A stretch of DNA of 64,000 nucleotides from Patescibacteria group bacterium (lineage in GTDB: Bacteria; Patescibacteriota; Patescibacteriia; JACRDY01). Shown piece by piece: positions 17,480 to 64,000 of the stretch. Each line of letters begins with the position of its first letter. Position 1 is the first letter of the stretch. Below the pieces are notes generated by a model. The model ran no database searches and was not told the DNA's origin. It worked only from the letters and a program-made list of their open reading frames with translations. The translations under genes and the position numbers were made by a program. The stretch is from assembly GCA_041650515.1 (NCBI GenBank), contig JBAZLA010000001.1, forward strand, positions 82,710-146,709, given 5' to 3'.

Positions 17480-17491
17480 ATCTATAGTCTC

Positions 17492-17521
17492 AAAACCCTC
17501 CGCTTCGGCGGAGGGTTTTTG
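17492..17521 (+). terminator. Rho-independent terminator after rpoC
   Basis: aaaccctccgcttcggcggagggttttt. Confidence 0.8.
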
Positions 17522-17715
17522 TTTAGTCAATAAAAAAACCGCTCACTAGAGGAGCGGGTCCAAGGATAAACACAAAGCAAGCTATTTTCCCAAGCGGGGT
17601 TTTATTCAGCACATCCCAGACCACAATCAAATCTATTTTTTAGAAACACTAAAACAATAAAACCAGCGGGGGCTTGAGGGCGTTGCGGCGCCGAGTCCCG
17701 TTCCAGCCTCTCTAA

Positions 17716-26238: not shown

Positions 26239-26304
26239 ACAAACAATATAACATATTAAATCTAAAATATTTCTAAACTTTTGGCAATGACAGAATGGCT
26301 AAAA

Positions 26305-26400
26305 TAAGACACTTTTCATCTTCGTACCCCTTCCTGTTGGAGTTTGATGTGAATGAACTATTTTGGAGTATAAAAAAAGACCTATTATCTGGGTCTAAAA
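26305..26400. repeat. Leader repeat, copy 2
   Basis: Duplicate of 24897-24990. It carries a vestigial ATG-AAA-AGT start followed by a stop. Confidence 0.65.
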
Positions 26401-26439
26401 AAATTGTTAAATTATTCTAAAGAAAAGATTAAGTTAGAT

Positions 26440-27231
26440 CTAGTCAATAAATTGGAAGGAATCCATTATTTCAGAATCAAAACACTTAGGAAATTTTAAG
26501 CCAATAATACATTCTTGGCCCATGCTCCAATAAGCAATCTTTTCGTTCGCAGGATTAGATTTAATAGCAATTGAATAATTAATTGGACATTCAGTTAGGC
26601 TTAAATCTTTTCCATCCCCGTTCACAATAACATCATAAGTGACAGAATCATCAACCTTCCTTTTGCCGCCATAACTACAACCTGAACCATATTTTTCTTT
26701 GATAAAATGGTCTAGATTATTTTCTGCTATCTTCTGAATAGTTATGTACCAAGAGTTATTTTCGGATATACCACTATCATCAATTGAATTAATAATTTTT
26801 ACACATTGGTTATTATATTTTTTATAATAATAAGCTTCTCTTATAAAAATATTATTGCCGCGACTAAGAGTTGTGTAGGGTACTAAAATATAATCACTAT
26901 CAACGTTTTCGCATTCAAAATAATTACCATCATAATAATGAAAATAAGGAACAGCCAATACGGGGAACTTAAATGTGATTCCCAATTTCGTATTCCGATA
27001 AGTATTCCAGCACTCCGTATCCAGCTCGTCAGCACAGTCGGTTTTAGTCGGCGGAATAATCTGACCGCTCAGTGACGCTGATTGGTTAGTTGGTTGATTA
27101 ACATCAATACTATTAACCGCCAACGGCTGACCTGAAAAAAAAGCAGTCTTAATAAACCAAACAACGCTAGCCAAACCAAAAAGCATCAGAAAGATGAGGA
27201 CCGCGAAGATAAGTTTTGTTTTGAGATTCAT
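26440..27231 (-). CDS. Hypothetical secreted/membrane-anchored Cys-containing protein, AT-rich
   Basis: N-terminal signal/transmembrane segment. No recognisable motif. Confidence 0.4.
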   Translation of the reverse strand: MNLKTKLIFAVLIFLMLFGLASVVWFIKTAFFSGQPLAVNSIDVNQPTNQSASLSGQIIPPTKTDCADELDTECWNTYRNTKLGITFKFPVLAVPYFHYYDGNYFECENVDSDYILVPYTTLSRGNNIFIREAYYYKKYNNQCVKIINSIDDSGISENNSWYITIQKIAENNLDHFIKEKYGSGCSYGGKRKVDDSVTYDVIVNGDGKDLSLTECPINYSIAIKSNPANEKIAYWSMGQECIIGLKFPKCFDSEIMDSFQFID

Positions 27232-29047: not shown

Positions 29048-29200
29048 GTCATTGCGAGGAGCAAAGCGACGAAGCAATCTCCTGAATAATCCACCAGATT
29101 GCTTCGTCGCTCCGCCAGTTGGCGGAACTCGCTTGGGGCTGGCTCCTTATATTGTCATCCTGACCCCCTCGGCAAAGTTTATCCTGAACGCAGCGAAAGT
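29048..29200. repeat. Family-B composite repeat
   Basis: Left arm gtcattgcgaggagc with hairpin gacgaagcaatctcctgaataatccaccagattgcttcgtc, then a second module ttgtcatcctga... Confidence 0.7.
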
Positions 29201-29251
29201 ATAAAAAAAGTGGTCACGTCGACCACTGGTCCTCCAAATCCTCCTGCATTC

Positions 29252-30397
29252 CTAACCGATGTACGACAGCGTATGGCAGCTAGAACAAACCACGATTCGC
29301 CGCCAATCGACGTCGCCGCTCCGGAATGGCTGCAGCGTTTTCTGATCACACTGCTGACAGCGACCATCATAACTGAAGCCGTTAATGTCGTCCCGCGTCG
29401 CCGCAGACATTGGATCAGAAGCAAAAGTCACGTGGCAGTCAGCACACTCCGCCACTCGCCGAGGTCCTTCTTGGGTGATAATCACCCGGGTACGGGGGAA
29501 GTCACAGCCGCCCCAACACCGACACTTAATCGGAAACTCCCGGACACTCTGCAAGCCGTTAGTGGGTGGCTCGTCAGCTTCCTCGGGCTGATCAGTGTCC
29601 GGCTCCTCCGAATCTTCATCGGCCCAGGGACGAAACTTGTGACTACGCCAACAGGTGATCACCGGTCGACGACCTTGTTTGGTCGCCTCCTCACTGATGC
29701 CACCCTGACCGACCCGTTCACCACATTGAGGGCAACGATGGTTATGGGTCTGGCCAGAATCAGACATCGGCAAGGCCAACCAATCAATCAGCTCAACCGG
29801 GCGATCACCTTGCTTGCGGTAGATTTTGCCGCAACTACCGCAGACGACGACGTCACGCTCGCCCTGCTGAGTCTCAATCCGCCGGACCTTGTTGGCCCGA
29901 CTGTCCCAACTGTTGGGACCGTTACTGCAGTAAGGACACTCGTGCCGTGGTTCCCGGCTGGCGGCTGTGGCCAGACTATTCCAATCCGGCCGAGCGTCGG
30001 CTCTGCGGTAATCACGTTTACAACGACCACAGCGCCGAACCGGTTGGTAACCGGTTAACGTCATGGCATTGGCTTCGTGATTACCTTTCCAGTTGCCGCA
30101 GTAGGGGCAACTGTCACAGAACGGCCCATCGGTCTTGCCCAGCGGCAAGTCCTCAAGCCGTATACCTGCCGGCTTGTTAACCGGTGCCGAAGCGGCGAAC
30201 CGGCTAACCCGTGCCGACTCGCTGCGACGATCACCGTGAGCATGAGCCGGCCAAGCCTGGCCCGGGTAGTTTTTCCGCCAGAACGCCTGCATCTGACGCT
30301 TGCGTCCTGACTTCTGCGACCGCTGAACTTTCCAGCCACGCCGCTTATTACACCCCTTCTCGCTGTACCGGTTACACCGGTGTTTTTTGGATTTCAA
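29252..30397 (-). CDS. Cysteine-rich zinc-ribbon-repeat protein with basic N-terminus (GC-rich island)
   Basis: At least nine CxxC-type pairs at regular spacing (CDSCPYC, CGRC, CPYC, CGSCG, CPQCG, CADCH, CQQCD, CSSCH). Start is TTG, preceded by GAGAGGAGGAATC. GC is about 60% against a flank of about 42%. The antisense 319-aa ORF is compositionally implausible. Confidence 0.55.
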   Translation of the reverse strand: MKSKKHRCNRYSEKGCNKRRGWKVQRSQKSGRKRQMQAFWRKNYPGQAWPAHAHGDRRSESARVSRFAASAPVNKPAGIRLEDLPLGKTDGPFCDSCPYCGNWKGNHEANAMTLTGYQPVRRCGRCKRDYRRADARPDWNSLATAASREPRHECPYCSNGPNSWDSRANKVRRIETQQGERDVVVCGSCGKIYRKQGDRPVELIDWLALPMSDSGQTHNHRCPQCGERVGQGGISEEATKQGRRPVITCWRSHKFRPWADEDSEEPDTDQPEEADEPPTNGLQSVREFPIKCRCWGGCDFPRTRVIITQEGPRRVAECADCHVTFASDPMSAATRDDINGFSYDGRCQQCDQKTLQPFRSGDVDWRRIVVCSSCHTLSYIG

Positions 30398-34769: not shown

Positions 34770-34815
34770 GCCCTAAAATAAAAAAAGGAGGCTGATGGCG
34801 CAAGTGCCGGCCTCC
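34770..34815 (-). terminator. Rho-independent terminator (minus strand)
   Basis: ggaggccggcacttgcgccatcagcctcc followed by a T7 run on the minus strand. Confidence 0.65.
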
Positions 34816-34854
34816 GTAAATGACCATTTGGGGCTGGTCAAAGCCCTGCCGTGT

Positions 34855-35298
34855 TCAGTCGGCGCGGACGTCTTCCCGGCCCGGGAAAAACTTGAGCTCC
34901 GAGGGCACAGAAAGTGTCGGCGTCACGATGGTGGTCATAAACCCAAACTGCCGGCTCTTGGCGATGTGCCGGGCGATGAAGTACATCATCGCCGAATTGA
35001 ACTGGCTGGCCAGTTCCGCCAGCTTGTCTTCCGGCACGGGTACTTCCTCGGTGTGGAGTTCGACCCAGACCATCGCCTGTTCGCCGTGGTCGCCGAGACT
35101 GACGATCGGCGGATCGACACAGATGTCTTCCGCCTTGCACGGCATTTCCACAACATCGTTGCCCTGATCGTCATCAACCATGGCGAAGATGTCGTTGGTC
35201 TCGATCAGCGTCCTGGCCAGGCCCCCCAGCTCATGGGGGCGGTGTACCAGACCGGTATCACGCGCCGCAATGCTGGACATACGAATTACGATACGCAT
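34855..35298 (-). CDS. Acidic hypothetical protein (147 aa) in a GC-rich island
   Basis: AAGGAGGAAACC-ATG. Plausible composition. The overlapping plus-strand 215-aa ORF is R/H-rich antisense noise. Confidence 0.5.
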   Translation of the reverse strand: MRIVIRMSSIAARDTGLVHRPHELGGLARTLIETNDIFAMVDDDQGNDVVEMPCKAEDICVDPPIVSLGDHGEQAMVWVELHTEEVPVPEDKLAELASQFNSAMMYFIARHIAKSRQFGFMTTIVTPTLSVPSELKFFPGREDVRAD

Positions 35299-35640
35299 TG
35301 GTTTCCTCCTTGGTTATCACATTTCGACCACCTGAAATCAAACTCTCAAGCCATTGCTGGCTCAATTATCCGACTCCGCCTAAAAAACCCGGAAAAAAGT
35401 AGCCCTATTTACTCTTTTCCCGCTCTTTTAGGTACTAATTGAGAGCGTTGAATAATTATGAAACGCTCTCATCCTGAGCAAAGCGAAGGATCTCTTACGG
35501 TTTGACTACCACGATAATCACTTAGCTCGGTATGAGATAATTAAATCATTCAATAGTTAAAATTAGGAACTTTAGACCTTAACATATTTTCCATTATCTG
35601 TCAACAATTCTCTTTGCCCAAGGAAAATATTACCATCTTC

Positions 35641-36023: not shown

Positions 36024-36135
36024 AGCTCCCCCCAAGTTAGAAGACCCTACTTATATTGTAGCCCCTTTAAAAAGAAAAAGAAGAGACAGTTTCTAATCTT
36101 GTCGATAATATTCAAAAAAAACAAAATACTAGATA

Positions 36136-36325
36136 CCCCTGGGGTCTGGGGCGAATATGGCGCCAAGTCCCGCTCCAACCTTTCTTGATTACGCCGAGGG
36201 GTGGGACGGGTAAATCCGTAGGCGGATTAACAATGAATTGCGCCTTATAAGCCCCAGGGCTTTTTTGCCCGCCTAGACTCGCTAGGCGAGGCTGGCTACT
36301 TTTTTAGTCATAAAAAAGTAGACAA
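36136..36325 (+). repeat. Family-A structured repeat, copy 1
   Basis: Closing stem ccctggggtctgggg...gccccaggg followed by a T6 run. Conserved blocks are ggcgccaagtcccgc, ttgattacgcc and gggacgggtaaa. It ends with a covarying palindrome ctactttttta-gtca-taaaaaagtag. Confidence 0.6.
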
Positions 36326-36526
36326 CTTCATAGACGGGAGAGGAATCCCTCCGCTCGGATTTCACCCCGAGCCCTTCGGCGGAGTTCATCAACAAACTGA
36401 TTCTTCGCCTCGCCCTGCGGGCTCGCTCAGAATGATGAAATAAAAGAAAACAAAAAAACCACCAATATCCTATCCGCGGCTTTTTTATTCTTAATGATGT
36501 TCCTATCCTCCTACCGTCCTATCCTC

Positions 36527-42764: not shown

Positions 42765-43100
42765 ATGAATGCCGGTATTGAAAATCCGGAAATATATCTC
42801 GCGTTGTTGCGAGCTACGGCTAATGCGCAAATTCTATACAATCGGGCGGTCTTCTGCCTGATGCACCACGCCTGTAGCCACAGCCACCAACCAAAATTAG
42901 AAACTCCCATGATGGCTTTTGCCGATCTCTGGCAAACTGCCAACACTACGCTCCGGCGGCAAAAAGCTCGAGAGTTTCTACAAGCCGCCACCCGGCTCGA
43001 ACTCGGCTGGGTCTGGCCGGATCAACCGACCGAGGAAGAACCAACCGAGAGGCAACTGGCCGATGCTTTCGCCAATCTGCTTAAGCATCTCAATCATTAG
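42765..43100 (+). CDS. Hypothetical protein (111 aa), GC-rich island
   Basis: AAGGAGGTTTTAGTT-ATG, with a terminator gacccatccgggtc followed by a T8 run downstream. Confidence 0.5.
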   Translation: MNAGIENPEIYLALLRATANAQILYNRAVFCLMHHACSHSHQPKLETPMMAFADLWQTANTTLRRQKAREFLQAATRLELGWVWPDQPTEEEPTERQLADAFANLLKHLNH

Positions 43101-43293
43101 ACCCATCCGGGTCTTTTTTTATACCCCTACGAATTTTTATCATGTCATTGCGAGCGTAGCCCCCGACCCGTGTGTCGGGGGCGGAGCGAGTCGAAGGATA
43201 GTTTATAAAAAAGACCCGGAAGAAAGAGCCCCAATGGGTTTTCTCCGGGTGGCGAATCTTTACGATCCGCTAGTTTTCAGTTGTCCGTGTGCT

Positions 43294-43728
43294 TCAGCAG
43301 TTGAGCACGGTGACGATCCCCACGGAGGAGTTGAAGCCCAGGCTGGACAGGTAGCTTTCGTCCACGGCGGCGACTTCCTCACGGATTTCCTTCGAATTGA
43401 CGTCGTTCTCGTTGACGGCAATATCGTTGGAAACGCACTCCGTTCCTTGATCCATCGGCGCGACGTCGTTGTTCGCATCCTTCGACTGTGCGGCGGTGAT
43501 CACGTTGACCAGGGAAGCGGGCGGCGACACATCAACGGTCGCCGAGAGATTGGGCGCCGCGTAGTTCGCAGCCAACCCGAAGATAATCGCCTGATGGTTC
43601 GCAACGACGGCCGGAGTCTCATCGGTGGCCTCGTTCGCGACCTGAACCGGAGCGGCCTGCGCGACGGTCAGCCCGACCATCAGCACCGCCAAACAACACA
43701 ACGCAATGCACAAAAACAGTTTTCTCAT
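43294..43728 (-). CDS. Secreted hypothetical protein (signal peptide), GC-rich island
   Basis: AAAGGAGAAGAACCG-ATG and an N-terminal signal peptide (MRKLFLCIALCCLAVLMVGLTVAQA). Confidence 0.5.
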   Translation of the reverse strand: MRKLFLCIALCCLAVLMVGLTVAQAAPVQVANEATDETPAVVANHQAIIFGLAANYAAPNLSATVDVSPPASLVNVITAAQSKDANNDVAPMDQGTECVSNDIAVNENDVNSKEIREEVAAVDESYLSSLGFNSSVGIVTVLNC

Positions 43729-44168
43729 CGGTTCTTCTCCTTTTCGAAGAATTTTTGCCCCACCCTGGCTGATTGAAACCCTAGGGTTCCGAATCTGATA
43801 CCAAAGCGGTGCGCCTCCTGATTACCCTAGCAATCCCCTACCGATCGATCCAAATTAACCAAACTAGCTGTCATGGGGGTTGACTACTTCCCACTGACTA
43901 GCTCCCAAGGGTTAGTTGGGTCTCATGCTTGTTGAGGGATAACAGATCTAGTGCTAGTCTGGCTAGCAGTTTGATCAATCGTGATCGAATCGGTTTTGAA
44001 GGTTGCTTTTGGGTTATCATAATAATACTAATTTTATTTTTATTTAGCAAATAAAAAATTGCTTCGGCCGCCGGTAACCAATTGACAGAATGATTTATAA
44101 ATAATAAAGTGAGTTATTCGGTCTAATTTTGGAATTTGGAATTTTCAACTTTCTTGGAGGGCAGTAAA

Positions 44169-44645
44169 ATGACGACCTTTTCATCTTTAGTTGACTCTTT
44201 GGTTGGCTCGGTGGTGGGCACCAAGTCGTTTGGTATGGCCGTGGCGGATCTGTTGGCCTACCTGGCCAAAATGCAGCCGCTGCAGGATCCCAAACAACAG
44301 CGGTTGCTGCAGGCCGCCGAAGCATCCTTCCGCGACGCACCAGCAATGAAACCCTGGCTCGCCTGCGTCGCAACTTGGCAAATTCTCGAGGATATTTTCA
44401 CCGAATTGGCTGACACCCAATCAGCCTTTGAGGATTCGCACCCTGGCTCCGAAGAAGAGACCAGGGTAGATCAAGTCACCAGTGATCTATCAGATGTCCT
44501 GAACGATCTACACGATCTAAAGGGGATCGACGATCTCCAAGACGACCAACTAATGGCCGAGGAGGTTCGCCGCTTGACTCACAAATGTTTCCTGGCGATC
44601 AACGCCTGGCTGGAAATCATGGGTTGGTTACCTCAGGAGGGATAA
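44169..44645 (+). CDS. Hypothetical acidic protein (paralog pair member 1)
   Basis: TGGAGGGCAGTAAA-ATG. Followed by terminator gagggtaaccatcccctc-T7, which is nearly identical to the one after 44751..45197. Confidence 0.5.
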   Translation: MTTFSSLVDSLVGSVVGTKSFGMAVADLLAYLAKMQPLQDPKQQRLLQAAEASFRDAPAMKPWLACVATWQILEDIFTELADTQSAFEDSHPGSEEETRVDQVTSDLSDVLNDLHDLKGIDDLQDDQLMAEEVRRLTHKCFLAINAWLEIMGWLPQEG

Positions 44646-44750
44646 CCAACCGACGTCACAACCCCGAGGGTAACCATCCCCTCTTTTTTTATTGACAAAT
44701 CACTAAAAATAATATTAGATAAGCATAACTTTAACTGCGAGGTCACGAGA

Positions 44751-45197
44751 ATGGAAGAAGGGTTTAGCCGGTTACTCAATACCCTGCGGCAATCCGCCGC
44801 CGCACTCGAGCGCAGGGACGCGCTTATGGAGATCATGGGAATATTCCAACGCTTGGAAATATTCCAATCCTGCCAGAACTTATTGGCAGGACTCATAGCG
44901 TGTTTTGGTCTCTGTCCCCGACTACCGGGACTTGGCCAGCGGCTGTTTCTCCGCCACCTCTTCGTGGCACTCAGCCAGCACCTCGGCACCGAGGTCCAAA
45001 AGCGGGAAGCGGCAACCCCGCCGACCTGGGAAGAACCAGCGGGCTACCCCGATATGGTGGTCGCCCTCACCAAGGCCATGCAGGTCCTGGAAAAGGATGC
45101 CAACCTGGAAACCATCCACGGAGCAGCCGCAGACGGCTTTGCCGCTCTGTTCCAATGGCTCGGTTGGCTCGGAGCCTTTTCCGGCACAACAGACTGA
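44751..45197 (+). CDS. Hypothetical protein (paralog pair member 2)
   Basis: Followed by gagggtacccactccctc-T7 terminator, a duplicate of the upstream one. Weak Shine-Dalgarno sequence. Confidence 0.4.
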   Translation: MEEGFSRLLNTLRQSAAALERRDALMEIMGIFQRLEIFQSCQNLLAGLIACFGLCPRLPGLGQRLFLRHLFVALSQHLGTEVQKREAATPPTWEEPAGYPDMVVALTKAMQVLEKDANLETIHGAAADGFAALFQWLGWLGAFSGTTD

Positions 45198-50732: not shown

Positions 50733-52409
50733 ATGCCTAAATGTTTAATCTGCCAATCTAACTTTACCATCGAGCCTGACGACCGGATTTTTTATCAAAA
50801 AATCAATGTACCCGAGCCGGTCGAGTGCCCAGCTTGCCGCCAGCAGCTGCGCCTTTGTTGGCGTTGCGAACGCAGCCTGCACTTCCGACCCTGCGACCTT
50901 TGTGGTAGACAGCATATGTCTAGCTATGGTGCTCACACTACCTTTCCGGTTTATTGCCTAGACTGTTGGTATGGCGACAGCTGGAATCAACTTCAAAACG
51001 GCCGCGATTTTGACTTCTCTCGCCCGTTTTTTGAACAATGGGGTGAACTCCAAAAAATATCAGCTCGACCGAGCCTTTTTATTACTCAAGGTACGGTTTT
51101 TAACAGCGACTATTGTAACGCCGTCACGGCGATTAAAAACTGCTACCTGGTTTTTAGCGCTTTTGAATGCGAAGATTGTTATTATTCCAGCTTTATTCGC
51201 GAATCGTATAATCTTTTTGATTGCACTGAGGTATATTCGTCTGAACGATGTTACGATTGCATCAATTGCGACCAATGTTATGGCGTAATTGCTAGCGATA
51301 ACTGCAAAGTCTGCCGCGACTCGGCTTTTCTCTGGGATTGCCACGGCTGCAGTGACTGTTTGTTGTGTACCAATCTACGTAATCAAAAATTCTGTATCAA
51401 TAACCAGCAACTAACCGAAGCCGACTATCGCGCCAAAAGAGCCCAGATTGATCTGCGGTCCAAAACAATCTATGACCAGAGCACTCAAAAATTAAAGGAG
51501 CTCAAAAAACAAGCGATTCATAAATACTGCCAAGGATTTAATAATATTAATTGCTCTGGCGATTATTTGACTCGCTGTAAAAATTCTAAATACGCCTATG
51601 ACTGCTTCGAAAATGAGGATTGCAAATACGTCACCCGGCTTAATAGCGGCAAAGATTGTTTTGATGTCGACCATTTTGGCTCAGATGGAATAGAGCTAGT
51701 CTACTATACTGCCAGTTCTGGCACCCGCTCGTTTAATAATAAGTTCTGCAACCAAGTCTGGAGCACTGTCCAGAATATGGAATACTGCGATATGTGTCAG
51801 AACGGCTCGCATGACTGTTTCGGCTGCGCCTGTCTAAATAAAAAGCAATATTGCATCCTCAATAAACAATACTCACCAGAAGAATACGCCAAGCTTAAAG
51901 AAAAAATAATCGCCCACATGCGCCAAACCCCGTATAACGGAACGGGGCAAGCCGGTGAATATGGCCGTTTTTTCCCGCCCCACCTTTCCCACGTTCCTTA
52001 TACTGATTCATTTGCGCAAGACTATTACCCACTAACTAAGGAAAAGGCGCTAAAACTTGGCTTTCGCTGGGAAGACGATGACTCTAAATACCAACCCGCT
52101 TCCTGCCCATTGCCAGATGATTTGAATGAAATCAAGAATGATATTACCAAAGAAATTTTAGTCTGCACCAACTGCGGCAAGAATTACAAAATCATTAGTC
52201 AGGAATTGGAGTTTTATAAAACCCTCAATCTGCCCCTACCCGACCAATGTTTTAACTGCCGACTACTGGTTCGTTTGGCTCGCAAAAATCCCCGCGTACT
52301 CTATGATCATACCTGTTCTAAATGCGGCAAGATGCTAAAAACTACTTATTCTCCAAACCGGCCAGAAAAAGTTTATTGTGAAGAGTGTTATCAGAAGGAA
52401 ATATATTAA
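50733..52409 (+). CDS. Cysteine-rich repeat protein, tandem paralog A (558 aa)
   Basis: N- and C-terminal zinc-ribbon pairs (CxxC...CxxC). Internal repeats have the form xCxxCxxSxxxx(N/D)C. C-terminus is VYCEECYQKEIY. Confidence 0.6.
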   Translation: MPKCLICQSNFTIEPDDRIFYQKINVPEPVECPACRQQLRLCWRCERSLHFRPCDLCGRQHMSSYGAHTTFPVYCLDCWYGDSWNQLQNGRDFDFSRPFFEQWGELQKISARPSLFITQGTVFNSDYCNAVTAIKNCYLVFSAFECEDCYYSSFIRESYNLFDCTEVYSSERCYDCINCDQCYGVIASDNCKVCRDSAFLWDCHGCSDCLLCTNLRNQKFCINNQQLTEADYRAKRAQIDLRSKTIYDQSTQKLKELKKQAIHKYCQGFNNINCSGDYLTRCKNSKYAYDCFENEDCKYVTRLNSGKDCFDVDHFGSDGIELVYYTASSGTRSFNNKFCNQVWSTVQNMEYCDMCQNGSHDCFGCACLNKKQYCILNKQYSPEEYAKLKEKIIAHMRQTPYNGTGQAGEYGRFFPPHLSHVPYTDSFAQDYYPLTKEKALKLGFRWEDDDSKYQPASCPLPDDLNEIKNDITKEILVCTNCGKNYKIISQELEFYKTLNLPLPDQCFNCRLLVRLARKNPRVLYDHTCSKCGKMLKTTYSPNRPEKVYCEECYQKEIY

Positions 52410-52553: not shown

Positions 52554-54212
52554 ATGCCCAATTGTAAAAACTGCCAACAAAATTTCACCATTACCGAGGC
52601 CGATCGGCAGTTTTATCGCAAAATGGAAGTGCCAGAACCAACTATGTGTTTTCCCTGCCGACTGCAAAACCTCATGGCCTATCGCAATGAGAGAGTTCTT
52701 TATCCAGCTATTTGTGGTCTGTGCAAAAAATCTATTCTCGCTGCTTATCCGCCGACCCATCCTACACCTATTTATTGCTATGAATGTTGGCACACGGATA
52801 AATGGGACTCTACCACTTATGGTCAAGATTATGATTCTGACCGATCATTTTTTGAGCAATATGAAAAACTGCAAAATACAGTACCGCCCTTTGCCTTATC
52901 GGTTTTTGGCAGTATCAACTCCGACTATACCAATTGCGCCTCTTGGAATAAAAACAGCTATTTGGTCTCCGGCGCTAATTATAACGAAGACGTACTGTAC
53001 GGCAACTACGTCAACTATGATAAATATTCTTTGGATATTTCTTTTACTCATAAATCTGAGCTTTGCTACGAGATTACCGACGGCGAAAACAATTACCATG
53101 TTCGTTTTGCTACTGATAGCTCTAATTGCTCCGACTGCTCCTTTATCCACGACTGCCGCAATTGCGTCGATTGTTTTTGTTGCACTAATCTGCGCAATGC
53201 TAAATATTGTATTCTCAATAAACCATATAATGAAGCAGACTACCGGAAAAAAATGGCAGCCATCGATCTGGGCAGCTACCAAACCGTGCAACAATATCTT
53301 GGGGAATTTAAACAGCTCAAACTGCTGGCAGTTTATCAATATTATCATGGCAGTAAAAACGAAAACTCAACCGGTGATTATTTTTACTATACCAAAGACT
53401 GCCATTATTGCTTCGACGCCACCGAAGTTGAGGGTTGCGCTTATTTACAATGGTTTCATAAAGCGCGAAATTGTTACGACATCTTGGCTTGGGGTTTTGG
53501 TGCGGAAAATTGCTATAGTGGAGTAGAAGTCGGTGACAACGTTACCTTTTTAAAATTTACCCGCACCTGCCGCACTGGCTCAAGTAATCTGGAATATTGC
53601 CAAAATTGCATCGGTTGCACCGATTGTTTTGGCTGTTACTGCATGCACAATGTCAAATATTGTATTTTAAATAAACAATATTTGGAAAAAGAATACCGAG
53701 AATTAAAAGAAAAAATTATTGCCAAAACGAAAAGTAGCGGCGAATACGGCGAGTTTTTTCCAACTAAATATTCTTATTTTGGCTATAATGAAACTATCGC
53801 CAATGACTATTTTCCTTTAACTCGCGAGGAAGTACTCAAACGCGGCTGGCACTGGCAGGATAAAATGCCCGGAATTTATGACAAAGGCACCTTAACCGCC
53901 GACCAATTACCAAACAATATTAAAGAAGTTGAGGATAATATCACTAAAGAGATTCTGGTTTGTGCTAGCTGTGGCAAAAATTACAAAATTACTCTAGCCG
54001 AATTAAAACTCTATAAACAGATTACTGTGCCCTTACCTCGGCAATGTTTTGATTGTCGGCATTTAGCTAGACTAAAACAAAGAAACCCCCGACAATTATG
54101 GCACCGCCAGTGCCTGCGTCCCGGCTGCAAAAATGAATTTGAAACCACTTATGCTCCCGATCGCTCGGAGAAAGTTTATTGTGAGGAGTGCTATCAAAAA
54201 GAGATCTACTGA
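52554..54212 (+). CDS. Cysteine-rich repeat protein, tandem paralog B (552 aa)
   Basis: Same architecture and termini (MPNCKNCQ... / ...VYCEECYQKEIY) as paralog A. Confidence 0.6.
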   Translation: MPNCKNCQQNFTITEADRQFYRKMEVPEPTMCFPCRLQNLMAYRNERVLYPAICGLCKKSILAAYPPTHPTPIYCYECWHTDKWDSTTYGQDYDSDRSFFEQYEKLQNTVPPFALSVFGSINSDYTNCASWNKNSYLVSGANYNEDVLYGNYVNYDKYSLDISFTHKSELCYEITDGENNYHVRFATDSSNCSDCSFIHDCRNCVDCFCCTNLRNAKYCILNKPYNEADYRKKMAAIDLGSYQTVQQYLGEFKQLKLLAVYQYYHGSKNENSTGDYFYYTKDCHYCFDATEVEGCAYLQWFHKARNCYDILAWGFGAENCYSGVEVGDNVTFLKFTRTCRTGSSNLEYCQNCIGCTDCFGCYCMHNVKYCILNKQYLEKEYRELKEKIIAKTKSSGEYGEFFPTKYSYFGYNETIANDYFPLTREEVLKRGWHWQDKMPGIYDKGTLTADQLPNNIKEVEDNITKEILVCASCGKNYKITLAELKLYKQITVPLPRQCFDCRHLARLKQRNPRQLWHRQCLRPGCKNEFETTYAPDRSEKVYCEECYQKEIY

Positions 54213-57789: not shown

Positions 57790-57941
57790 GGGTATATTTT
57801 ACCATTTCGGACCAAATAAAAAAACCGCCTAACTTCTCTAATTTGTCATCCTAAGCCCTTCGGAATGACAATTAAAAATACTTTATCCCTAACAACATTA
57901 AATTTTTCTAAACAAAAAATCACCCTTCAAGGTGGTTTGGA

Positions 57942-57990
57942 GGCCAGGAGGGGATTTGTCTCCCTACGGGAGATCCCCCATAGGGGGACA
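57942..57990 (-). repeat. tRNA-Cys 3'-end duplicate (ggccaggaggggatttg) + double mini-hairpin module
   Basis: 17-nt identity to 58313-58329, followed by tctccc-tac-gggaga and tccccc-ata-ggggga hairpins. Confidence 0.7.
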
Positions 57991-57997
57991 CCCCTGA

Positions 57998-58279
57998 TTA
58001 TCCAACTGAGTGATTACCTATTCTTAATTTAATAATTTCTTTCTGCTGGCTATTGTGTTTCAACTCATATTCTCTTTTAGCAGCTACCAAATTACTAACA
58101 TAAGCCTCATAATAAACAAGAGCTAACGGCCTTTTGTCTTTTGTTGATTTTACTTCACCCTGATTATGTTTTAAAAAACGGGAACTCAAATCAGAAGAAT
58201 AGCCAATATATAACCACCTCGGATCTCTTATACTCTGTAGGGCATAGACATAAAACATGCCATAAGTATAAAAAACCAA
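57998..58279 (-). CDS. GIY-YIG nuclease domain protein (small, about 86-93 aa)
   Basis: FYVYAL...YIGYSSDL..R...H..G. Likely start is MFYVYAL at 58258. Confidence 0.7.
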   Translation of the reverse strand: MVFYTYGMFYVYALQSIRDPRWLYIGYSSDLSSRFLKHNQGEVKSTKDKRPLALVYYEAYVSNLVAAKREYELKHNSQQKEIIKLRIGNHSVG

Positions 58280-58311
58280 AAGTTAAATATTTCTAAACTT
58301 ATCAAACCAAA

Positions 58312-58383
58312 AAGGCCAGGAGGGGATTTGCACCCCTGCATAGAGGTTTTGCAGACCTCTGCCTTACTACTTGGCTACCTGGC
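58312..58383 (-). tRNA. tRNA-Cys (anticodon GCA)
   Basis: Acceptor ggccagg/cctggcc. Anticodon loop cUGCAaa. T-arm aggggTGCAAATcccct. Confidence 0.8.
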
Positions 58384-58413
58384 CGAAAAAGAAAAAAAAA
58401 TTTAAACAATGAT

Positions 58414-58503
58414 CAGGTTTTGTCTCCCTACGGGAGATCCCCCACAGGGGGACAGACCTCTGCCTGGATTTTATCCGCCTTGGGCGGAACTTGGCTACCT
58501 GGC
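58414..58503 (-). pseudogene. Degenerate tRNA-Cys copy with insertions in D-loop and anticodon loop
   Basis: Shares ggccaggtagccaagt...aggcagaggtctg...caaaacct with the intact gene. There is a 30-nt double mini-hairpin inserted after anticodon position 34 and a hairpin ccgcccaaggcgg in the D-loop. The 3' half is missing. Confidence 0.6.
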
Positions 58504-58600
58504 CGAAATTATTAAATCTCACCCTATAATAACAAAACAACTATCAAAAATCAACCTTACTTTTTTATTATTACTCAAACAATATAGAATAATAAACCCA

Positions 58601-58793
58601 ACTGGGGTTTGGGGCGCCCGCCTAGACTCGACGTCTAGTCGAGGCTGGAATACGGCGCGCAGCCGAGCTCCGACCTTTTTTGATTACGCCAAGGAGCGAG
58701 GCGGGTAAAACGAGCTGGGGATGAACAACGAATCGCGCCTGATGAGTCCCAAAGCTTTTTTGTGTTACTTTTTTAGTTATAAAAAAGTAACAA
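58601..58793 (+). repeat. Family-A structured repeat, copy 2
   Basis: ggggtttggggcg...agtcccaaagc-T6 closing stem. Has ttttttgattacgcc and gcgggtaaaacgag blocks, and the terminal palindrome gttactttttta-gtta-taaaaaagtaac. Confidence 0.6.
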
Positions 58794-58902
58794 CCACTAT
58801 TTTTCCAAAAAAAAGAAGCAGGTGGGCTTCTGTCTAGTGTTGTATCCTCCTTGGAAAACACTAGCTAGAAGCTTCCTGCTTTTGGGGGTATATTGCAACC
58901 CC

Positions 58903-59718
58903 TTAGGCGTCATCCTCCTCCCACGGATACCGGTTGTCCGGTTCGGACTCGGGAACGTGTGGCCCCCGCCGTGGCGGTTCCTCGCATTGCTGCTCGGTCC
59001 GCCCGCGACGCCGGCGGCGGCGGATGATCAGCCAAACGACCAGCAACAGCACCGGGATGCCAATCCGCAGCGCCCAGGTCTTGATCGCCAGATTCCGCTG
59101 GTCCGATTTGGCCTTGGCGTGGCTGGCATTGATCATTTCCATCGCCGCTTGGATGTCAGCCGGCGTGGCTTCGACTGCGGCGTCCTCCTTGAGCCGACGG
59201 TTTTCGGCCAGCGCCGTTTCCAGCGCTGCAGCCTGATCAGCCTGCGCCTGAGCGAGCTGGCCAGCCGGGCTGTCGGGCAACGGATCCGCTTGGTCTTCCA
59301 AGCCCCGCGGATACCAGACCGACGCCGAAGCGCCGGAACTGGCACCCATCAGCTTGTAGCGACCAGAAGCGGACACGTTCCAGGTGGATTCACCGGGAGG
59401 CAATTCGGTCTTTTCTCCAGATCCCTGAAGGGCAAAGACCTTGCCCGAATGGACCGACACCGTCAGCTTGGGTGCCCGCAACGGGTCCATCCAGACGGTC
59501 CGCACGACTTCGTTTTTGGGCAAGCTGTACGGCCCGTTCCAGACGGGGTTTGGGGTTTGTGTTGCTGTCTGCTTCGCCGCGGAGTTGGTCTTGAGCGACT
59601 CGAGCTGCTTTTTGGCCAGCTCGATCAGCTTATCCAGACCAATCTTGGCTTCACCGGTCAGACCGCCGGCCGTCCGTTCGAGAAGCTCAATCTCCTCTTC
59701 GGACAGCGGCTGGCCCGC
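58903..59718 (-). CDS. Hypothetical protein with C-terminal transmembrane segment and poly-Arg tract; continuous in frame with the upstream gene across a TAG
   Basis: Open frame from the codon after TAG(59719-59721) to 58903. The post-stop sequence is coiled-coil-like (EEEIELLERTAGGLTGEAKIGLDKLIELAKKQLESL). The ORF track starts at a TTG (59523). GC-rich. Confidence 0.4.
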   Translation of the reverse strand, partial: AGQPLSEEEIELLERTAGGLTGEAKIGLDKLIELAKKQLESLKTNSAAKQTATQTPNPVWNGPYSLPKNEVVRTVWMDPLRAPKLTVSVHSGKVFALQGSGEKTELPPGESTWNVSASGRYKLMGASSGASASVWYPRGLEDQADPLPDSPAGQLAQAQADQAAALETALAENRRLKEDAAVEATPADIQAAMEMINASHAKAKSDQRNLAIKTWALRIGIPVLLLVVWLIIRRRRRRGRTEQQCEEPPRRGPHVPESEPDNRYPWEEDDA

Positions 59719-60414
59719 CTAGATCTTGGTGCGGATTGCCTCGAGCCGGACAATCTTCAGCGCCTGCTCGTAGTCGGCGTACTCCGCCGCGATCTCGGTT
59801 GCCACCGTCTGGGCCGGATTAACTTGATCAGTTGCCCACCAGAACGGGGTGTTGTGGCCACAGACCCGGACCCAAATCCCCGAAGGAAAAAGGCCGAGAA
59901 TCAGGATCACCAGGACCAACCGGACGCCGGACGCCGCGAGGCGTTTGGGCCACATGCCCGTGGGCAGGCCCCACGCACGGCCGATTGCCCAAAGGCAAAG
60001 TAGCACCAGAAACAGACCGACGATAAAGGTGACGCTGAAGTGGAGCGGGGTGAGGGTCAGCCCGATGATGATAATCAACGGGTAGACCAGGATGGTCGCG
60101 AGAGTCAGGGTCACCGCCCCCCAACCGCGCTTGGCGATTCGCGCCGCCAGATCGGCCAGGTAGAGGGAGATGCCTTTGACCTTGTCCTCGGTAAGACCGA
60201 GGAGTGCGCCCAGCTCCTTGACGACCTTGGTCACCTTTTCCTCGAGAAACAGGGCCAAAACACCGCCGACCAACCAGGCGAGTACTTTCTGCTTGCGGGT
60301 CATCGGCTTGTCGTCTTCGATTCCGAGCCAGGCGAGGAGCATGGTGAAAAACTGAACGTACGGATCTTTCGTTTCGCCGAGGGGATCGGCTGTGGGCTTG
60401 ATGTTCTCGGACAT
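59719..60414 (-). CDS. Polytopic membrane protein (231 aa), GC-rich operon
   Basis: GAAGGAGTACTGCC-ATG. About 5 transmembrane segments. Ends at an in-frame TAG. Confidence 0.5.
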   Translation of the reverse strand: MSENIKPTADPLGETKDPYVQFFTMLLAWLGIEDDKPMTRKQKVLAWLVGGVLALFLEEKVTKVVKELGALLGLTEDKVKGISLYLADLAARIAKRGWGAVTLTLATILVYPLIIIIGLTLTPLHFSVTFIVGLFLVLLCLWAIGRAWGLPTGMWPKRLAASGVRLVLVILILGLFPSGIWVRVCGHNTPFWWATDQVNPAQTVATEIAAEYADYEQALKIVRLEAIRTKI

Positions 60415-60456
60415 GGCAGTACTCCTTCGTTCGTTGCTATCGAGTTGATTCGTTGG

Positions 60457-61110
60457 TTACTTCTTCTTGGGCATTAGCGCGGACATCATGGACGACTGCA
60501 AATGATTGGACATGGCCGTCGCGAAACCCCGCAAGGGAGACCGCTTGATCCAGCCGTGGTCCAAACAATACTGCGTTCGTTGCCAATCGTCCTGCCGCTC
60601 CTTGCCCCAACTTCCCATGAGCAGATACAAATACGGCAAGTCGTCGCGACTCTTGGTCGCAGCGACTACCTGCCGGAAATGATCCTGCGCCCAGGTTGGG
60701 AGATGGGTATACCAGTTGTTGAAAGCCTCATCGGCCGCTTTCAGAGCCGCTTCATCAAGTTTAAAGACTTTGACGGTCTCTTTTTTGGTTCTCAGCTGAG
60801 CACCTTCACGCGCCGGCGGAAGCTCTTTGTCCACGATAACGCTTCCCTCCATGAGGGTATGCGCTTTCTTGGCTTCAACCTCCATCGAGGCGGCTTCGTC
60901 TCCGAAACCGAGTCCGCCAACAGTACCAACCGCTTGCGCTTTTCCGGCGCCAGCGATTGTCTGTTTTATGCCGAATAGGCGATCAAGTACGAAGGCGGCA
61001 ATAGCCGCTACCGTGAAATCGCCAGCATCCGGTACAAAATGACGCAGAAAGCTCTGGACACCAGACGCAGGTTCACTTGCCGCCGAAGCGGTTTTCTTGT
61101 CCTCGGACAT
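60457..61110 (-). CDS. Hypothetical protein (217 aa), first gene of GC-rich operon
   Basis: ACGGAGGATACGAAA-ATG. No recognisable motif. Confidence 0.5.
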   Translation of the reverse strand: MSEDKKTASAASEPASGVQSFLRHFVPDAGDFTVAAIAAFVLDRLFGIKQTIAGAGKAQAVGTVGGLGFGDEAASMEVEAKKAHTLMEGSVIVDKELPPAREGAQLRTKKETVKVFKLDEAALKAADEAFNNWYTHLPTWAQDHFRQVVAATKSRDDLPYLYLLMGSWGKERQDDWQRTQYCLDHGWIKRSPLRGFATAMSNHLQSSMMSALMPKKK

Positions 61111-61360
61111 TTTCGTATCCTCCGTTTCTATCCTGTTATAAACTCTGAAACGACCAAAGGACCACCCTCTAGCCGTTATATTCTCACGCTTATATATTTA
61201 GCAGATTAAAAAGTCGTCGAAACGACCCAAAATCCGCCTTTTTCAAGGGACAGTCAGACTCGCTTTAGCCCGAAAGCTAATTTGAGACTAACTTTATATG
61301 ATAGCATATTTAGAGATAAAAGTCAATGATTTAAACCAAAAAATGGCCAAAATTAGCAAA

Positions 61361-61530
61361 AAAACAAAAAAGCATACGCCCCGACATAACATCGGGGCTA
61401 AACAAAAAAGCAAGGTTATCAGCCTTGTTTTCTTGCTTTTTTGTTTTCTTGTTTTATTTTTTAGGCCGAGTGATCCGCCAATTCGGCGAAAAACGAGGCC
61501 GTATGCTTTCTTGTTTTATTGCTTTATTGA
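61361..61530. repeat. Family-D MITE-like element with terminal inverted repeats aaagcatacgcc / ggccgtatgcttt and internal (ttttcttg)n
   Basis: Inverted termini, internal hairpin ccccgacataacatcgggg, and a microsatellite ttgttttcttgcttttttgttttcttg. Confidence 0.65.
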
Positions 61531-61590
61531 CCTAAAAAACCGCCCGACCAGGCGGCCTTTTAATTTTTATTTGATATCTATCACTTACTA

Positions 61591-62010
61591 CTAACCGCTA
61601 CCAGTAATAGTTTTAAACACTAAAGTTAAAATAGCATAGCTAGAAAAAACCACTATAATTCCAATAATCGACCAAACCATAATTTCACGACCTTTTTTGA
61701 CTCGCTCCTCATTGCCACCGGAAAAAATCCAATAAAAACCACCCAGCACAAAAGCCAAAAAGGCTAACGCGCCAATTGGAAAGATCATAAAATAAGCAAC
61801 CTGAGCAGCAAAACCGGTTAGCCGCGCCGCCGTGTCATCACTAGCCGAGTCATTATAACTGCGATAGCCCATAGGATCGCCTAAACAGATCGTTCCATCT
61901 GGTGTGCCTTCTGGACATTTCACCTCATCAGCCGCTAGAACCGCTAAACTATTGAATAATAAAATAGCTAAACAAGCTGAAAATAAGATCAATTTGATTT
62001 TGTTTTGCAT
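61591..62010 (-). CDS. TrbC/VirB2-like pilin family protein (candidate)
   Basis: Signal peptide plus two hydrophobic helices (FAAQVAYFMIFPIGALAFLAFVLGGFYW, MVWSIIGIIVVFSSYAIL), arranged as in conjugative pilin. Size 139 aa. Confidence 0.4.
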   Translation of the reverse strand: MQNKIKLILFSACLAILLFNSLAVLAADEVKCPEGTPDGTICLGDPMGYRSYNDSASDDTAARLTGFAAQVAYFMIFPIGALAFLAFVLGGFYWIFSGGNEERVKKGREIMVWSIIGIIVVFSSYAILTLVFKTITGSG

Positions 62011-62139
62011 ATGGATTTTAAAATGATTCTAATCTAATTATAGGATATTTTAGAAAAAAGGGATAGGGGAGAAGGACATCCATCATCGCAAGCGAGCTCA
62101 CCAGATTTATTATTTTAAAGCTCTGGGGTAATAGATCCA

Positions 62140-62301
62140 ATGGGGGTTTGGGGGTGTTTGCGGCGCCAAGTCCCGCCCCGGCCTTTTTGATCTTTCCCCA
62201 GGGGCGGGACGGGTAGAACGGAATAAAAATGAACAACGCCCGCGCCTCAAACGCCCCCAAAACTTTTTTGATTACTTTTTTAGTTATAAAAAAGTAACAA
62301 C
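62140..62301 (+). repeat. Family-A structured repeat, copy 3
   Basis: gggggtttggggg...cgcccccaaaac-T6. Has ggcgccaagtcccgcccc and gggcgggacgggtagaacgg blocks, and the terminal palindrome gttactttttta-gtta-taaaaaagtaac. Confidence 0.6.
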
Positions 62302-62353
62302 TTTAAAAAACCGCCTCAACGGCGGTTTTAATCTTAATATTTTTTTCTAAGGG

Positions 62354-62911
62354 TTAATAAATCTCCACTCTCAACCGACGAACACCAAACGCTTTAGCCG
62401 CCTCACGGCTCTTCATCCAGACATCAACTCGATAATCATAGCGGGCATTCATCCGGTCTTGGACAGTAAAAACTTGGTCGCCGAAGTAATCCGGCATTTT
62501 GATCTCGGTGCCAAAGGGTAAAAAATTAGCCGCCACCACGTCCTCTTGATCATGGAGACAAACGTTAAAACCATTGGCGGTTCGACACGGATCATCATCA
62601 CACTGATCAACCGTGCTGGAATAAGCCGTGACCGTCACCCAAATCACCCGTTTAGGCTTAGGCGCGGCTTCTGGCAGAGAATTAACGAACTCTTCTGGCT
62701 CAGCCGCTAAGGCGGGAGTAAATAAACTTAGCTCCAAAACCGGGGTATCAGCATCAATCGCACCGGTCTGCCGAAGCGAGTGGGCGAGGCTCACTTGCGG
62801 AAAGGCAAACTCAAAGATAACTATCGCCAAAACCCCAATCTCCAAATGCTTATTTTGAGCTATTTTTAGGTATTTTTTGGCTGTTTTAACAAAACGTCTC
62901 AGGTATTCCAT
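62354..62911 (-). CDS. 3D-domain protein (RlpA/MltA-like double-psi beta-barrel)
   Basis: VTVTAYSS..DQCDDDPC.TANG ... FGT.I..P ... VQDRMNARY...VDVWM motifs. N-terminal transmembrane segment. Confidence 0.55.
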   Translation of the reverse strand: MEYLRRFVKTAKKYLKIAQNKHLEIGVLAIVIFEFAFPQVSLAHSLRQTGAIDADTPVLELSLFTPALAAEPEEFVNSLPEAAPKPKRVIWVTVTAYSSTVDQCDDDPCRTANGFNVCLHDQEDVVAANFLPFGTEIKMPDYFGDQVFTVQDRMNARYDYRVDVWMKSREAAKAFGVRRLRVEIY

Positions 62912-63497: not shown

Positions 63498-63998
63498 CTA
63501 CTCTTTAACTAGTTTGATAAACTTAGCTACGGCTTCGTCTTGAGCCTGCTTCCGAATACCGACAATATGCTCTTTAACCCCTTTTCTGACCGTGGCTGGA
63601 TCGTCTTTAATATTAGTATAAAATCGATTAATAACATCCATGCCCATCGCCGCAATTGCCTGCATGCCGGCCCGCGCATCAGTCACTTGATATTTATCAC
63701 CCGCCGGCACCAATACCTGCCGGTCCAACAACTCTTTAATTATCGCCACGGCCGAATAATAATAGCGTTCGCCTTCGCTACCCTTTTCACCCGAGTTGGT
63801 GAGTAGATACTCTTCCAAGGCGGCTATTTTAGCTAATAACTGCTGCTCAATAATTTTATCAGCATCAGCTGGCTTATCTTGTTCCAGCTTACGCATTAAT
63901 AAAGCCACACCCACGGTTTCGGCTTTTAGTTCTTCAACTACTGCCGCTTCATCACTAACGCCCCGCCGCCTTTTGACGTGGCTATCTTCTTCGGCCAT
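63498..63998 (-). CDS. Hypothetical protein (166 aa)
   Basis: Complete ORF. The start codon lies 2 nt from the window edge. No recognisable motif. Confidence 0.4.
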   Translation of the reverse strand: MAEEDSHVKRRRGVSDEAAVVEELKAETVGVALLMRKLEQDKPADADKIIEQQLLAKIAALEEYLLTNSGEKGSEGERYYYSAVAIIKELLDRQVLVPAGDKYQVTDARAGMQAIAAMGMDVINRFYTNIKDDPATVRKGVKEHIVGIRKQAQDEAVAKFIKLVKE

Positions 63999-64000
63999 CA

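Follow-up and report, generated by a model that had tools for sequence, protein, structure and literature searches.

The locus described here raises the question of whether an in-frame TAG codon marks the end of a gene or interrupts one. It lies in a 64,000-nucleotide (nt) stretch of a Patescibacteria genome (contig JBAZLA010000001.1; henceforth referred to as the window, in which all positions are given), within a block of three open reading frames (ORFs) on the minus strand: ORF1, ORF2, which ends at the TAG, and ORF3, the frame that remains open for 271 codons behind it. The interpretation that we favour, with modest confidence, is that a recently acquired gene was split by a recent nonsense mutation; the case would be of a known kind, namely a foreign island with a gene interrupted by a nonsense codon. 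A first-pass annotation of the sequence had listed a very recent nonsense mutation among several alternatives, and it is the one best supported here, by the coding continuity across the TAG, the 65 codons behind it that are free of any start codon, the domain encoded downstream and the predicted topology. We treat the anatomy of the block, its coding continuity, its foreign composition, the domain homology and the missing start codon as observations.

The coding signal continues past the TAG

ORF1, ORF2 and ORF3 lie in one shared frame and form a 736-codon stretch with just two stops, in which ORF1 and ORF2 are separated by a spacer of 42 nt (Table 1). The coordinates and lengths given in the first-pass annotation were exact for ORF1, ORF2, the TAG and the 271 further open codons. 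Its description of a GC-rich operon (~60% compared to ~42%) was likewise borne out: the GC content of ORF1, ORF2 and ORF3 is 0.55, 0.60 and 0.63, respectively, compared to 0.42-0.45 in the conserved host genes of the window, and their GC content at third codon positions (GC3) is 0.61, 0.79 and 0.75, respectively, compared to 0.40-0.46 (~0.42) in the host.

An open frame alone is weak evidence of coding at this locus because the DNA is ~61% GC; we estimate the chance of 65 codons staying open in such DNA at ~0.14, and the antisense strand is also open, as a 393-amino-acid (aa) ORF (58822-60003, plus strand). The antisense ORF was rejected as a real gene on two grounds: its GC-by-position pattern is the mirror image of that of the minus-strand frame, and the homologous domain, the Shine-Dalgarno (SD) sites and the membrane helices described below are all on the minus-strand frame.

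The 65 codons directly behind the TAG have GC contents of 0.63, 0.45 and 0.75 at the first, second and third codon positions, respectively, and the difference between the third and second positions (0.31) was equalled by only 6 of 20000 shuffles. The same 65 codons scored +32.8 bits in frame, compared to -48 and -26 bits in the other two frames, when judged with a codon model for which ORF2 and the remainder of ORF3 were the training set. Shuffled versions scored -34 ± 11 bits and none of 5000 reached the observed value (z ~6), and genuine chunks of ORF2 and ORF3 scored 14-42 bits under the same model. The 22 codons nearest the TAG scored as coding, level with the remainder of the 65, and GC3 continues unbroken across the TAG at 0.67-0.90. 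No second lesion was detected, the frame having exactly one stop and no frameshift. Overall, the coding signal runs on in the same frame past the TAG, which agrees with the earlier remark that the sequence after the stop is unlike random sequence.

The post-TAG frame contains an Ig-like domain

An exhaustive HMMER search of 1.84 billion proteins with the 271-aa post-TAG frame returned the frame itself and six large proteins (P0005-P0010), each with a repeat unit that aligns with residues ~56-137 of the query, in as many as seven copies (best match P0005, E = 4.6e-13, phmmer). The six relatives carry signal peptides and LPXTG or LPFTG anchors, belong to the Acidimicrobiia where named, and have repeats that match the Pfam families MBG, FlgD_ig, SdrD_B and Gram_pos_anchor. 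With a profile of these repeats, residues 74-130 of the post-TAG frame aligned securely (envelope 64-133, E = 1.5e-7), and BLAST stretched the domain match to NPVWNGPY (residues 56-64), opposite CVYDGNF in the first strand of the repeats. The ATG start of one public gene call (residue 77) falls within the first aligned strand; that of the other, a TTG (residue 66), is at the domain edge. A single-sequence AlphaFold model of ORF3 (predicted local distance difference test (pLDDT) 66) has helices at residues 7-17 and 23-49 (pLDDT ~80), strands over residues 64-135 and long helices at 151-180 and 186-238, the latter group including the membrane segment. Foldseek comparison of this model with the PDB gave generic small beta-barrel or cupin matches with template modelling scores of ~0.2, which were disregarded, and the AlphaFold model of ORF1 (pLDDT 44) was unusable.

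The post-TAG frame thus holds one immunoglobulin (Ig)-like beta-sandwich domain of the extracytoplasmic actinobacterial type. ORF3 resembles the LPXTG Ig-repeat proteins of the Acidimicrobiia in its 29-36% identity to the repeat unit and in its LPPGxYTW and GYxLxG motifs. However, it has one copy of the domain compared to 4-7, lacks paired cysteines, and has the domain set between long helices and membrane segments; neither a signal peptide nor an LPXTG sortase motif was found in the post-TAG frame. The domain, and not the whole-protein architecture, is what ORF3 and these surface proteins have in common.

The other searches returned little. ORF1 and ORF2 retrieved only themselves from 5.8 billion clusters, and Pfam, PHROGs, PADLOC and NCBIfam contained nothing above threshold for ORF1-3. 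A PDB sequence search with ORF1 and ORF3 gave nothing significant, no relative of any of the ORFs was present among viral contigs, and no match was obtained among plasmids and phages by blastn or among plasmids by tblastn. Paralogues of ORF1-3 were absent from the window and its flank, and a homologue of the junction was absent from the exhaustive search of 1.84 billion representatives, in which the query was the post-TAG frame alone. The earlier verdict that all three proteins are unrecognisable consequently stands for ORF1 and ORF2, which have no detectable homologue, but not for ORF3, in which an Ig-like surface-protein repeat can be recognised.

Predicted membrane topology of the fused product

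The topology was derived by hand from the positive-inside rule, together with the extracytoplasmic relatives of the Ig-like domain. The description of ORF2 as a membrane protein was confirmed, although a firm number of five helices was not: three helices are strong and one or two N-terminal ones are weaker, which gives 4-5. The hydrophobic helix and arginine run claimed for the C-terminus of ORF3 are present. The loop at residues 145-163 of ORF2 contains 3 lysine or arginine residues and no acidic residue and would therefore be cytoplasmic, so that the last helix of ORF2 would exit the membrane and leave the C-terminus outside. In ORF3, 7 lysine or arginine residues are found within 15 residues after the sole helix, and the RRRRRRGR cluster would hold the tail in the cytoplasm and thus place the 213 N-terminal residues outside. 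ORF3 has no signal peptide and would by itself be unable to export its Ig-like domain, all relatives of which are secreted. We infer that the topology is coherent only for a fused ORF2-ORF3 protein of ~503 aa.

A predicted single transcription unit and no start site behind the TAG

The putative promoter at 61326-61298 is the best promoter-like site in 58500-62400; it is surrounded by AT-rich DNA of host type and precedes the start of ORF1 by 188 nt. Neither a promoter nor a minus-strand terminator comparable to that behind ORF3 was found between ORF2 and ORF3. Judged by these signals, ORF1-3 would be one transcription unit, begun at a promoter of host type (61326) and closed by the terminator at ~58814. 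The leader of ORF1 folds at -56.5 kcal/mol (z = -3.4) and has no match in Rfam. It contains a terminator-like hairpin and T-run at 61228-61211, upstream of the SD site, and this hairpin could be an attenuator or a riboswitch-like element.

The SD duplex energies are -9.5 kcal/mol for ORF1 (GGAGG) and -8.8 kcal/mol for ORF2 (AAGGAG). The first ATG, GTG or TTG after the TAG is codon 66 (TTG 59523), and ATG 59490 is codon 77. Their SD energies are -4.4 and -3.2 kcal/mol, respectively, compared to an island background of -3.3 ± 2.4, and no SD site is present at either. The sole good SD-like string in the post-TAG frame, GAGGAG, abuts an ATT without spacing. The first 13 nt of ORF1 and ORF2 are near-identical (ATGTCCGAG[G/A]ACA, encoding MSE[D/N]). 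Host and island are mismatched in their translation signals: near-consensus SD sites are found at the 61110 and 60414 starts, whereas most host genes are without an SD site and lie behind AT-rich leaders (among them PolA and the large polymerase-sized ORFs; for example, the starts at 57789, 13571, 17974 and 21241).

Probable foreign origin of the block

ORF1-3 are best read as a small foreign block lately acquired by a ~42% GC Patescibacteria genome, probably from a high-GC donor. A recent import is suggested by the GC3 of 0.75-0.79 compared to ~0.42, by the singleton proteins, by the flanking tRNA gene and repeats, and by the strong SD sites, since such sites on ORF1 and ORF2 in an SD-poor host fit a foreign origin. 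Genomic islands are common in Patescibacteria (PMC12455944). A tRNA-Cys gene (58313-58384) is located ~520 nt downstream of the block, and no integrase or mobility gene was found within 57.9-62.9 kb, where there is just a free-standing GIY-YIG ORF beside tRNA-Cys. With PolA as the anchor, the nearest species-level genome among the GTDB species genomes is a Falkowbacteria metagenome-assembled genome (MAG) with 50% identity, and no syntenic relative was found. In public collections, ORF1-3 are the hypothetical proteins WC480_00705, WC480_00700 and WC480_00695, each of which is a singleton at 90% clustering. A chimeric assembly of the block was rejected, as the Logan and European Nucleotide Archive (ENA) contigs cross both junctions with host-like DNA.

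GC3 within ORF1 is just 0.43-0.60 in the first ~115 codons (60750-61110, minus strand) and 0.63-0.80 from ~60750 on. The compositional boundary of the island appears to be inside ORF1; this ORF may be a chimera, or drift toward the composition of the host may have gone further in one half than in the other.

A gene probably split by a recent nonsense mutation

We propose that ORF2 and the 271 codons that follow it would be the halves of one ancestral membrane-protein gene of ~503 codons. Its product would have comprised 4-5 N-terminal membrane helices, an extracytoplasmic helical stalk, the Ig-like beta-sandwich domain, a second long (return) helix, a final membrane helix and an arginine-rich cytoplasmic tail. 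A single nonsense mutation would have made the TAG, the simplest route being from CAG (Gln), and deamination of 5-methylcytosine, converting CCAGG to CTAGG, is a possible cause. CCAGG, the classic hotspot of amber mutations in E. coli lacI, is converted to CTAGG by such deamination, and the CTAGG at the stop contains the only CTAG of the island. Ribosomes that initiate at the strong SD site of ORF2 would stop at the TAG and produce a 231-aa membrane core. The downstream part would still be transcribed, with little or no translation for want of a credible initiation site or export signal, and would thus be a very young pseudogene or gene remnant. The lack of a second lesion and the unameliorated GC3 argue for a recent event. 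As with the topology and the donor, we infer rather than observe which way the mutation went, what caused it and that the downstream part goes untranslated.

The locus resembles nonsense-interrupted genes in genomic islands in its atypical composition, its nearby tRNA gene and repeats and its lack of known relatives, as well as in having one stop in an otherwise intact frame and a downstream part without a start site. It differs from them in that the block has no mobility gene and no intact homologue, and in that the host is streamlined. A split by nonsense mutation would mean that this locus captures a gene at the moment of its import and prompt decay, in a Patescibacterium that is streamlined and probably symbiotic and in which a high-GC block of envelope-protein genes came with its own ribosome-binding sites and one gene was lost before its composition had drifted, a useful rather than a surprising case.

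Several points weigh against a nonsense mutation. Neither ORF2 nor the junction had a homologue among 5.8 billion clusters, and hence no intact version of the gene was seen. The secure domain alignment (residues 74-130) would be compatible with a start at the TTG at residue 66, and a missing SD site is weak evidence against initiation, given that most host genes are without one. Streamlined Patescibacteria are expected to lose dead DNA fast, yet the 271 codons are intact, which implies either a very recent event or continued function. Moreover, of the local RNA structures in the operon, the one that ranks second in stability begins exactly at the stop, and the stop lies within a 16-mer common to a mobile mini-palindrome; a plain point mutation predicts neither. 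As to the deamination route, CCWGG sites are not depleted (8 observed compared to ~6 expected) and nothing points to Dcm-type methylation.

Two genes, readthrough or a mobile element

We consider it unlikely that there are two genuine genes, with ORF2 ending at the TAG and ORF3 encoding an independent, tail-anchored protein of 206 aa (from TTG 59523) or 195 aa (from ATG 59490). The 195-nt spacer between them would have to be coding-like either through a split old enough to be functional or by chance. Both public gene callers predict a downstream gene, and NCBI annotates exactly the 206-aa gene with the internal TTG start that the first-pass annotation had offered as an alternative. Initiation without an SD site is usual for the host, the secure core of the domain begins at residue 74, after the TTG, and the downstream frame is wholly intact. 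Nevertheless, the spacer has full same-frame coding periodicity (z ~6), including in the part nearest the stop, is 195 nt long compared to 42 nt between ORF1 and ORF2, and gives the TTG and the ATG a GC-rich upstream sequence unlike the leaders of host genes. The ATG start would also cut the first aligned strand of the Ig-like domain. In addition, there is no signal peptide, and the arginine cluster behind the only membrane helix would either leave an Ig-like domain of secreted type in the cytoplasm or violate the positive-inside rule. We therefore disfavour a pair of genes with an internal TTG start.

An alternative that would leave the TAG in a functional gene is leaky or programmed readthrough, whereby mostly the 231-aa core is made and a fraction of ribosomes reads the UAG, assisted by a hairpin, to give a surface-exposed isoform of ~503 aa. 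We regard this as quite improbable. The decoder would be a near-cognate or suppressor tRNA, with pyrrolysine the least likely. A 64-nt hairpin starts from the third base of the UAG (Table 1); at -40.3 kcal/mol it ranks 2 of 2142 among the 66-nt windows of the operon, and its 141-nt context has a z of -4.77. Stable structures just 3' of a stop are known stimulators of selenocysteine (Sec), pyrrolysine (Pyl) and viral readthrough. The downstream frame is, moreover, intact, coding-like and required for a coherent topology. Our post hoc estimate of the chance of such a placement at the stop is ~1%. In a control scan, however, 5 of 69 island windows had a z <= -3.5, and 1 more was at exactly -3.5, which indicates that GC-rich coding RNA folds strongly here anyway. 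The hairpin was also considered as a non-coding insertion, which was rejected as its 22 codons score as coding, and as a terminator, which was rejected as no T-run follows.

The decoding side gave further points against readthrough. TAG terminates 13 of the 39 long ORFs in the window and is thus an ordinary host stop, and neither the 64-kb window nor the 6.4 kb beyond contains a tRNA with a CUA anticodon. The protein is unrelated to methylamine methyltransferases, with no such match in Pfam or NCBIfam. UAG followed by G is not known as a context of weak termination in E. coli. The stop reassignments known in bacteria are of UGA only (PMC8629427), and our literature search found no report of UAG recoding in Patescibacteria. 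Reassignment of TAG as a sense codon was rejected, as this TAG is the sole in-frame case in the window and the codon otherwise ends ORFs as described above.

As in the Sec insertion sequence (SECIS, UGA), the Pyl insertion sequence (PYLIS, UAG) and viral readthrough hairpins, the stop is directly followed by a long, stable stem-loop in coding sequence. The hairpin here differs in starting inside the stop codon and not several nt after it, neither Sec or Pyl machinery nor a suppressor tRNA came to light (~70 kb for tRNA-CUA), and the protein is unrelated to the Pyl and Sec families. The locus shares with the TAG-to-Gln phages (genetic code 15) an in-frame TAG in foreign DNA within a standard-code host; it differs from them in having one TAG in three genes, no phage genes, no hits to PHROGs or viral contigs and no suppressor tRNA. 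That the hairpin promotes partial decoding of the UAG, so that a 231-aa core is accompanied by a minor 503-aa isoform displaying the Ig-like domain on a helical stalk, is a very doubtful proposition. Readthrough would nonetheless be the outcome that matters more, as structure-assisted UAG readthrough in bacteria outside the Pyl system is essentially undescribed.

The stop could also stem from a mobile mini-palindrome (CAGCC...TCTAGGCGGGC), as the footprint of an insertion or excision or as a short gene-conversion tract, which we consider very unlikely and which would alter how the stop arose but not its effect. Two copies of a ~200-nt element described below contain the mini-palindrome, each at a different position, and for this reason it appears mobile. 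The 16-mer TCTAGGCGGGCCAGCC at the TAG equals the right end of the mini-palindrome joined head-to-tail to its left end, and the 11-mer occurs 3 times in the window compared to an expected ~0.03 per 11-mer. This resemblance was, however, seen post hoc: approximately nine 11-mers cover the TAG, the chance that any of them recurs is ~0.1-0.3, and just the extra 5 nt are notable. Furthermore, the similarity extends no further on either side, the TAG is surrounded by in-frame, coding-like sequence, and no known mechanism leaves a head-to-tail junction in a target site. If the link were real, a very small mobile hairpin element would be able to introduce stops into genes.

With regard to whether the base is real, the TAG-containing locus is on a 472-kb ENA contig with its sole mismatch in 19 kb at 62281, and a 3.5-kb Logan contig of run SRR8542065 is 100% identical over 58765-62268, TAG included; a literature search gave no paper on this run. 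Scanning metagenomes for the TAG junction, with NNN in place of the stop, yielded four unrelated chance matches (RTKIAAGQP in other enzymes) and no population variants. Although all versions may stem from one sample or read set, it is extremely unlikely that the TAG is an assembly or consensus artefact, the sequencing error raised by the first-pass annotation, or a minority allele in a population that really has a sense codon, given that four pipelines (the ENA k141 assembly, Logan, the NCBI MAG and the JGI gene calls) have the identical base, that the lone difference is elsewhere and that Illumina consensus seldom has single-base substitution errors.

Table 1. Features of the three-ORF block and associated elements (window positions)
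Feature	Position	Strand	Details
ORF1	61110-60457	-	217 aa, TAA stop
ORF1 weakly hydrophobic segment	residues 30-48	-	From hydropathy
ORF2	60414-59722, TAG 59721-59719	-	231 aa; from translation, hydropathy and SD duplex energy
ORF2 membrane helices	residues ~98-120, 126-145, 164-182 (strong); 19-32, 44-60 (weaker)	-	From hydropathy and charge
In-frame TAG	59719-59721	-	Context ATC-TAG-GCG, within CTAGG
ORF3 (post-TAG frame)	59718-58903	-	271 codons, open to TAA 58905-58903
65 codons directly after TAG	59524-59718	-	No ATG, GTG or TTG; coding-like usage; predicted amphipathic helices
Post-TAG remainder	58903-59523	-	Public calls: 206 aa from TTG 59523 (NCBI), 195 aa from ATG 59490 (Prodigal-type)
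Ig-like beta-sandwich domain, single	59308-59550	-	Residues ~57-137 of post-TAG frame; HMMER, BLAST, repeat profile, AlphaFold
C-terminal membrane helix (TWALRIGIPVLLLVVWLII) then RRRRRRGR	58999-59079	-	Positive cluster, cytoplasmic by prediction
RNA hairpin	59656-59719	-	64 nt, imperfect, ~25 bp; starts at G of TAG; no T-run after
16-mer TCTAGGCGGGCCAGCC	59708-59723	-	Spans TAG; last 11 nt plus first 5 nt of mini-palindrome
Mini-palindrome CCAGCCTCG(A/C)CTAG(ACGT)CGAGTCTAGGCGGGC	58616-58647, 36267-36295	-	28-32 nt
Putative sigma-70-type promoter	61298-61326	-	TTGACT, 17-nt spacer, TATCAT, TG extension; 10/12 matches
ORF1 5' leader	61111-61297	-	~190 nt, structured; ends in ORF1 SD site GGAGG
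Putative intrinsic terminator after ORF3	58814-58872	-	Hairpin and T8 run; 58831-58814 tail TTTTTTTTGG; inverted repeat I9 58826-58872
~200-nt element, copy	58566-58798	-	Directly downstream of operon; 212 bits; carries mini-palindrome 58616-58647
~200-nt element, copy	62105-62305	-	Upstream of pilin gene; 208 bits
~200-nt element, other copies	36103-36329	-	
	L027 711-910		Outside window
	17485-17662	+	Weak match

Neighbouring genes, repeats and nested tRNA genes

The plastic region that surrounds the block, with its nested tRNA genes and GIY-YIG ORFs and its ~200-nt element, looks more unusual than the split gene itself and merits a study of its own. Upstream of the block on the minus strand (61591-62911 and 63498-64000) are a type IV secretion pilin gene (PF18895/TrbC-like, 139 aa) and ORFs of 185 aa and 663 aa, the latter two without family matches. 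The pilin gene, which has host composition, is in the same repeat-bracketed segment as the foreign operon: the direct copies of the ~200-nt element at 58566-58798 and 62105-62305 bracket the pilin gene and ORF1-3, and the Logan contig breaks at both.

The ~200-nt element is present in four clear copies in ~70 kb, each with an AT-rich hairpin (GTTACTTTTTTATAACTAAAAAAGTAAC) and, after it, nested helices that are rich in GC. Compensatory changes affect six base pairs among the first three aligned copies (A1), and Rfam gave no match for the element, which could be a new small RNA or an element resembling a miniature inverted-repeat transposable element (MITE).

Further GC-rich ORF patches are located at 29099-30397, 34795-35442 and 42919-45197 (GC 0.53-0.59, GC3 0.58-0.66, often open on both strands). 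Their ORFs have no Pfam family above threshold and none is related to ORF1-3. An AT-rich patch at 25033-27231 has 30-34% GC, and the genome looks like a mosaic of foreign pieces. Two adjacent paralogues of ~555 aa (50733-52409 and 52554-54212, plus strand) have treble-clef zinc-finger matches (PF23477), and several DNA repeats of 55-80 nt are found in and around their genes, including, at both ends, an 82-nt element with a hairpin.

Three tRNA genes are nested in degenerate copies of themselves: tRNA-Cys (57941-58506, minus strand) and, just beyond the window, tRNA-Pro and tRNA-Phe (L027 3901-4165 and 4226-4800), the tRNA-Pro nest having a GIY-YIG-like remnant. On the minus strand, the tRNA-Cys nest begins with the 5' part of the degenerate copy (58506-58424), which has hairpin inserts in the D-loop and the anticodon loop, continues with the intact tRNA-Cys (58384-58313) and a 93-aa GIY-YIG ORF (58279-57998), and ends with the 3' part of the degenerate copy (57995-57941), which has a hairpin insert in the T-loop. 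The hairpin inserts in the loops of the degenerate copies are ~30 nt long, and a GIY-YIG ORF or its remnant is present in two of the three cases. The nested layout looks like that of a homing-endonuclease cassette which carries a tRNA copy of its own into the matching tRNA gene.

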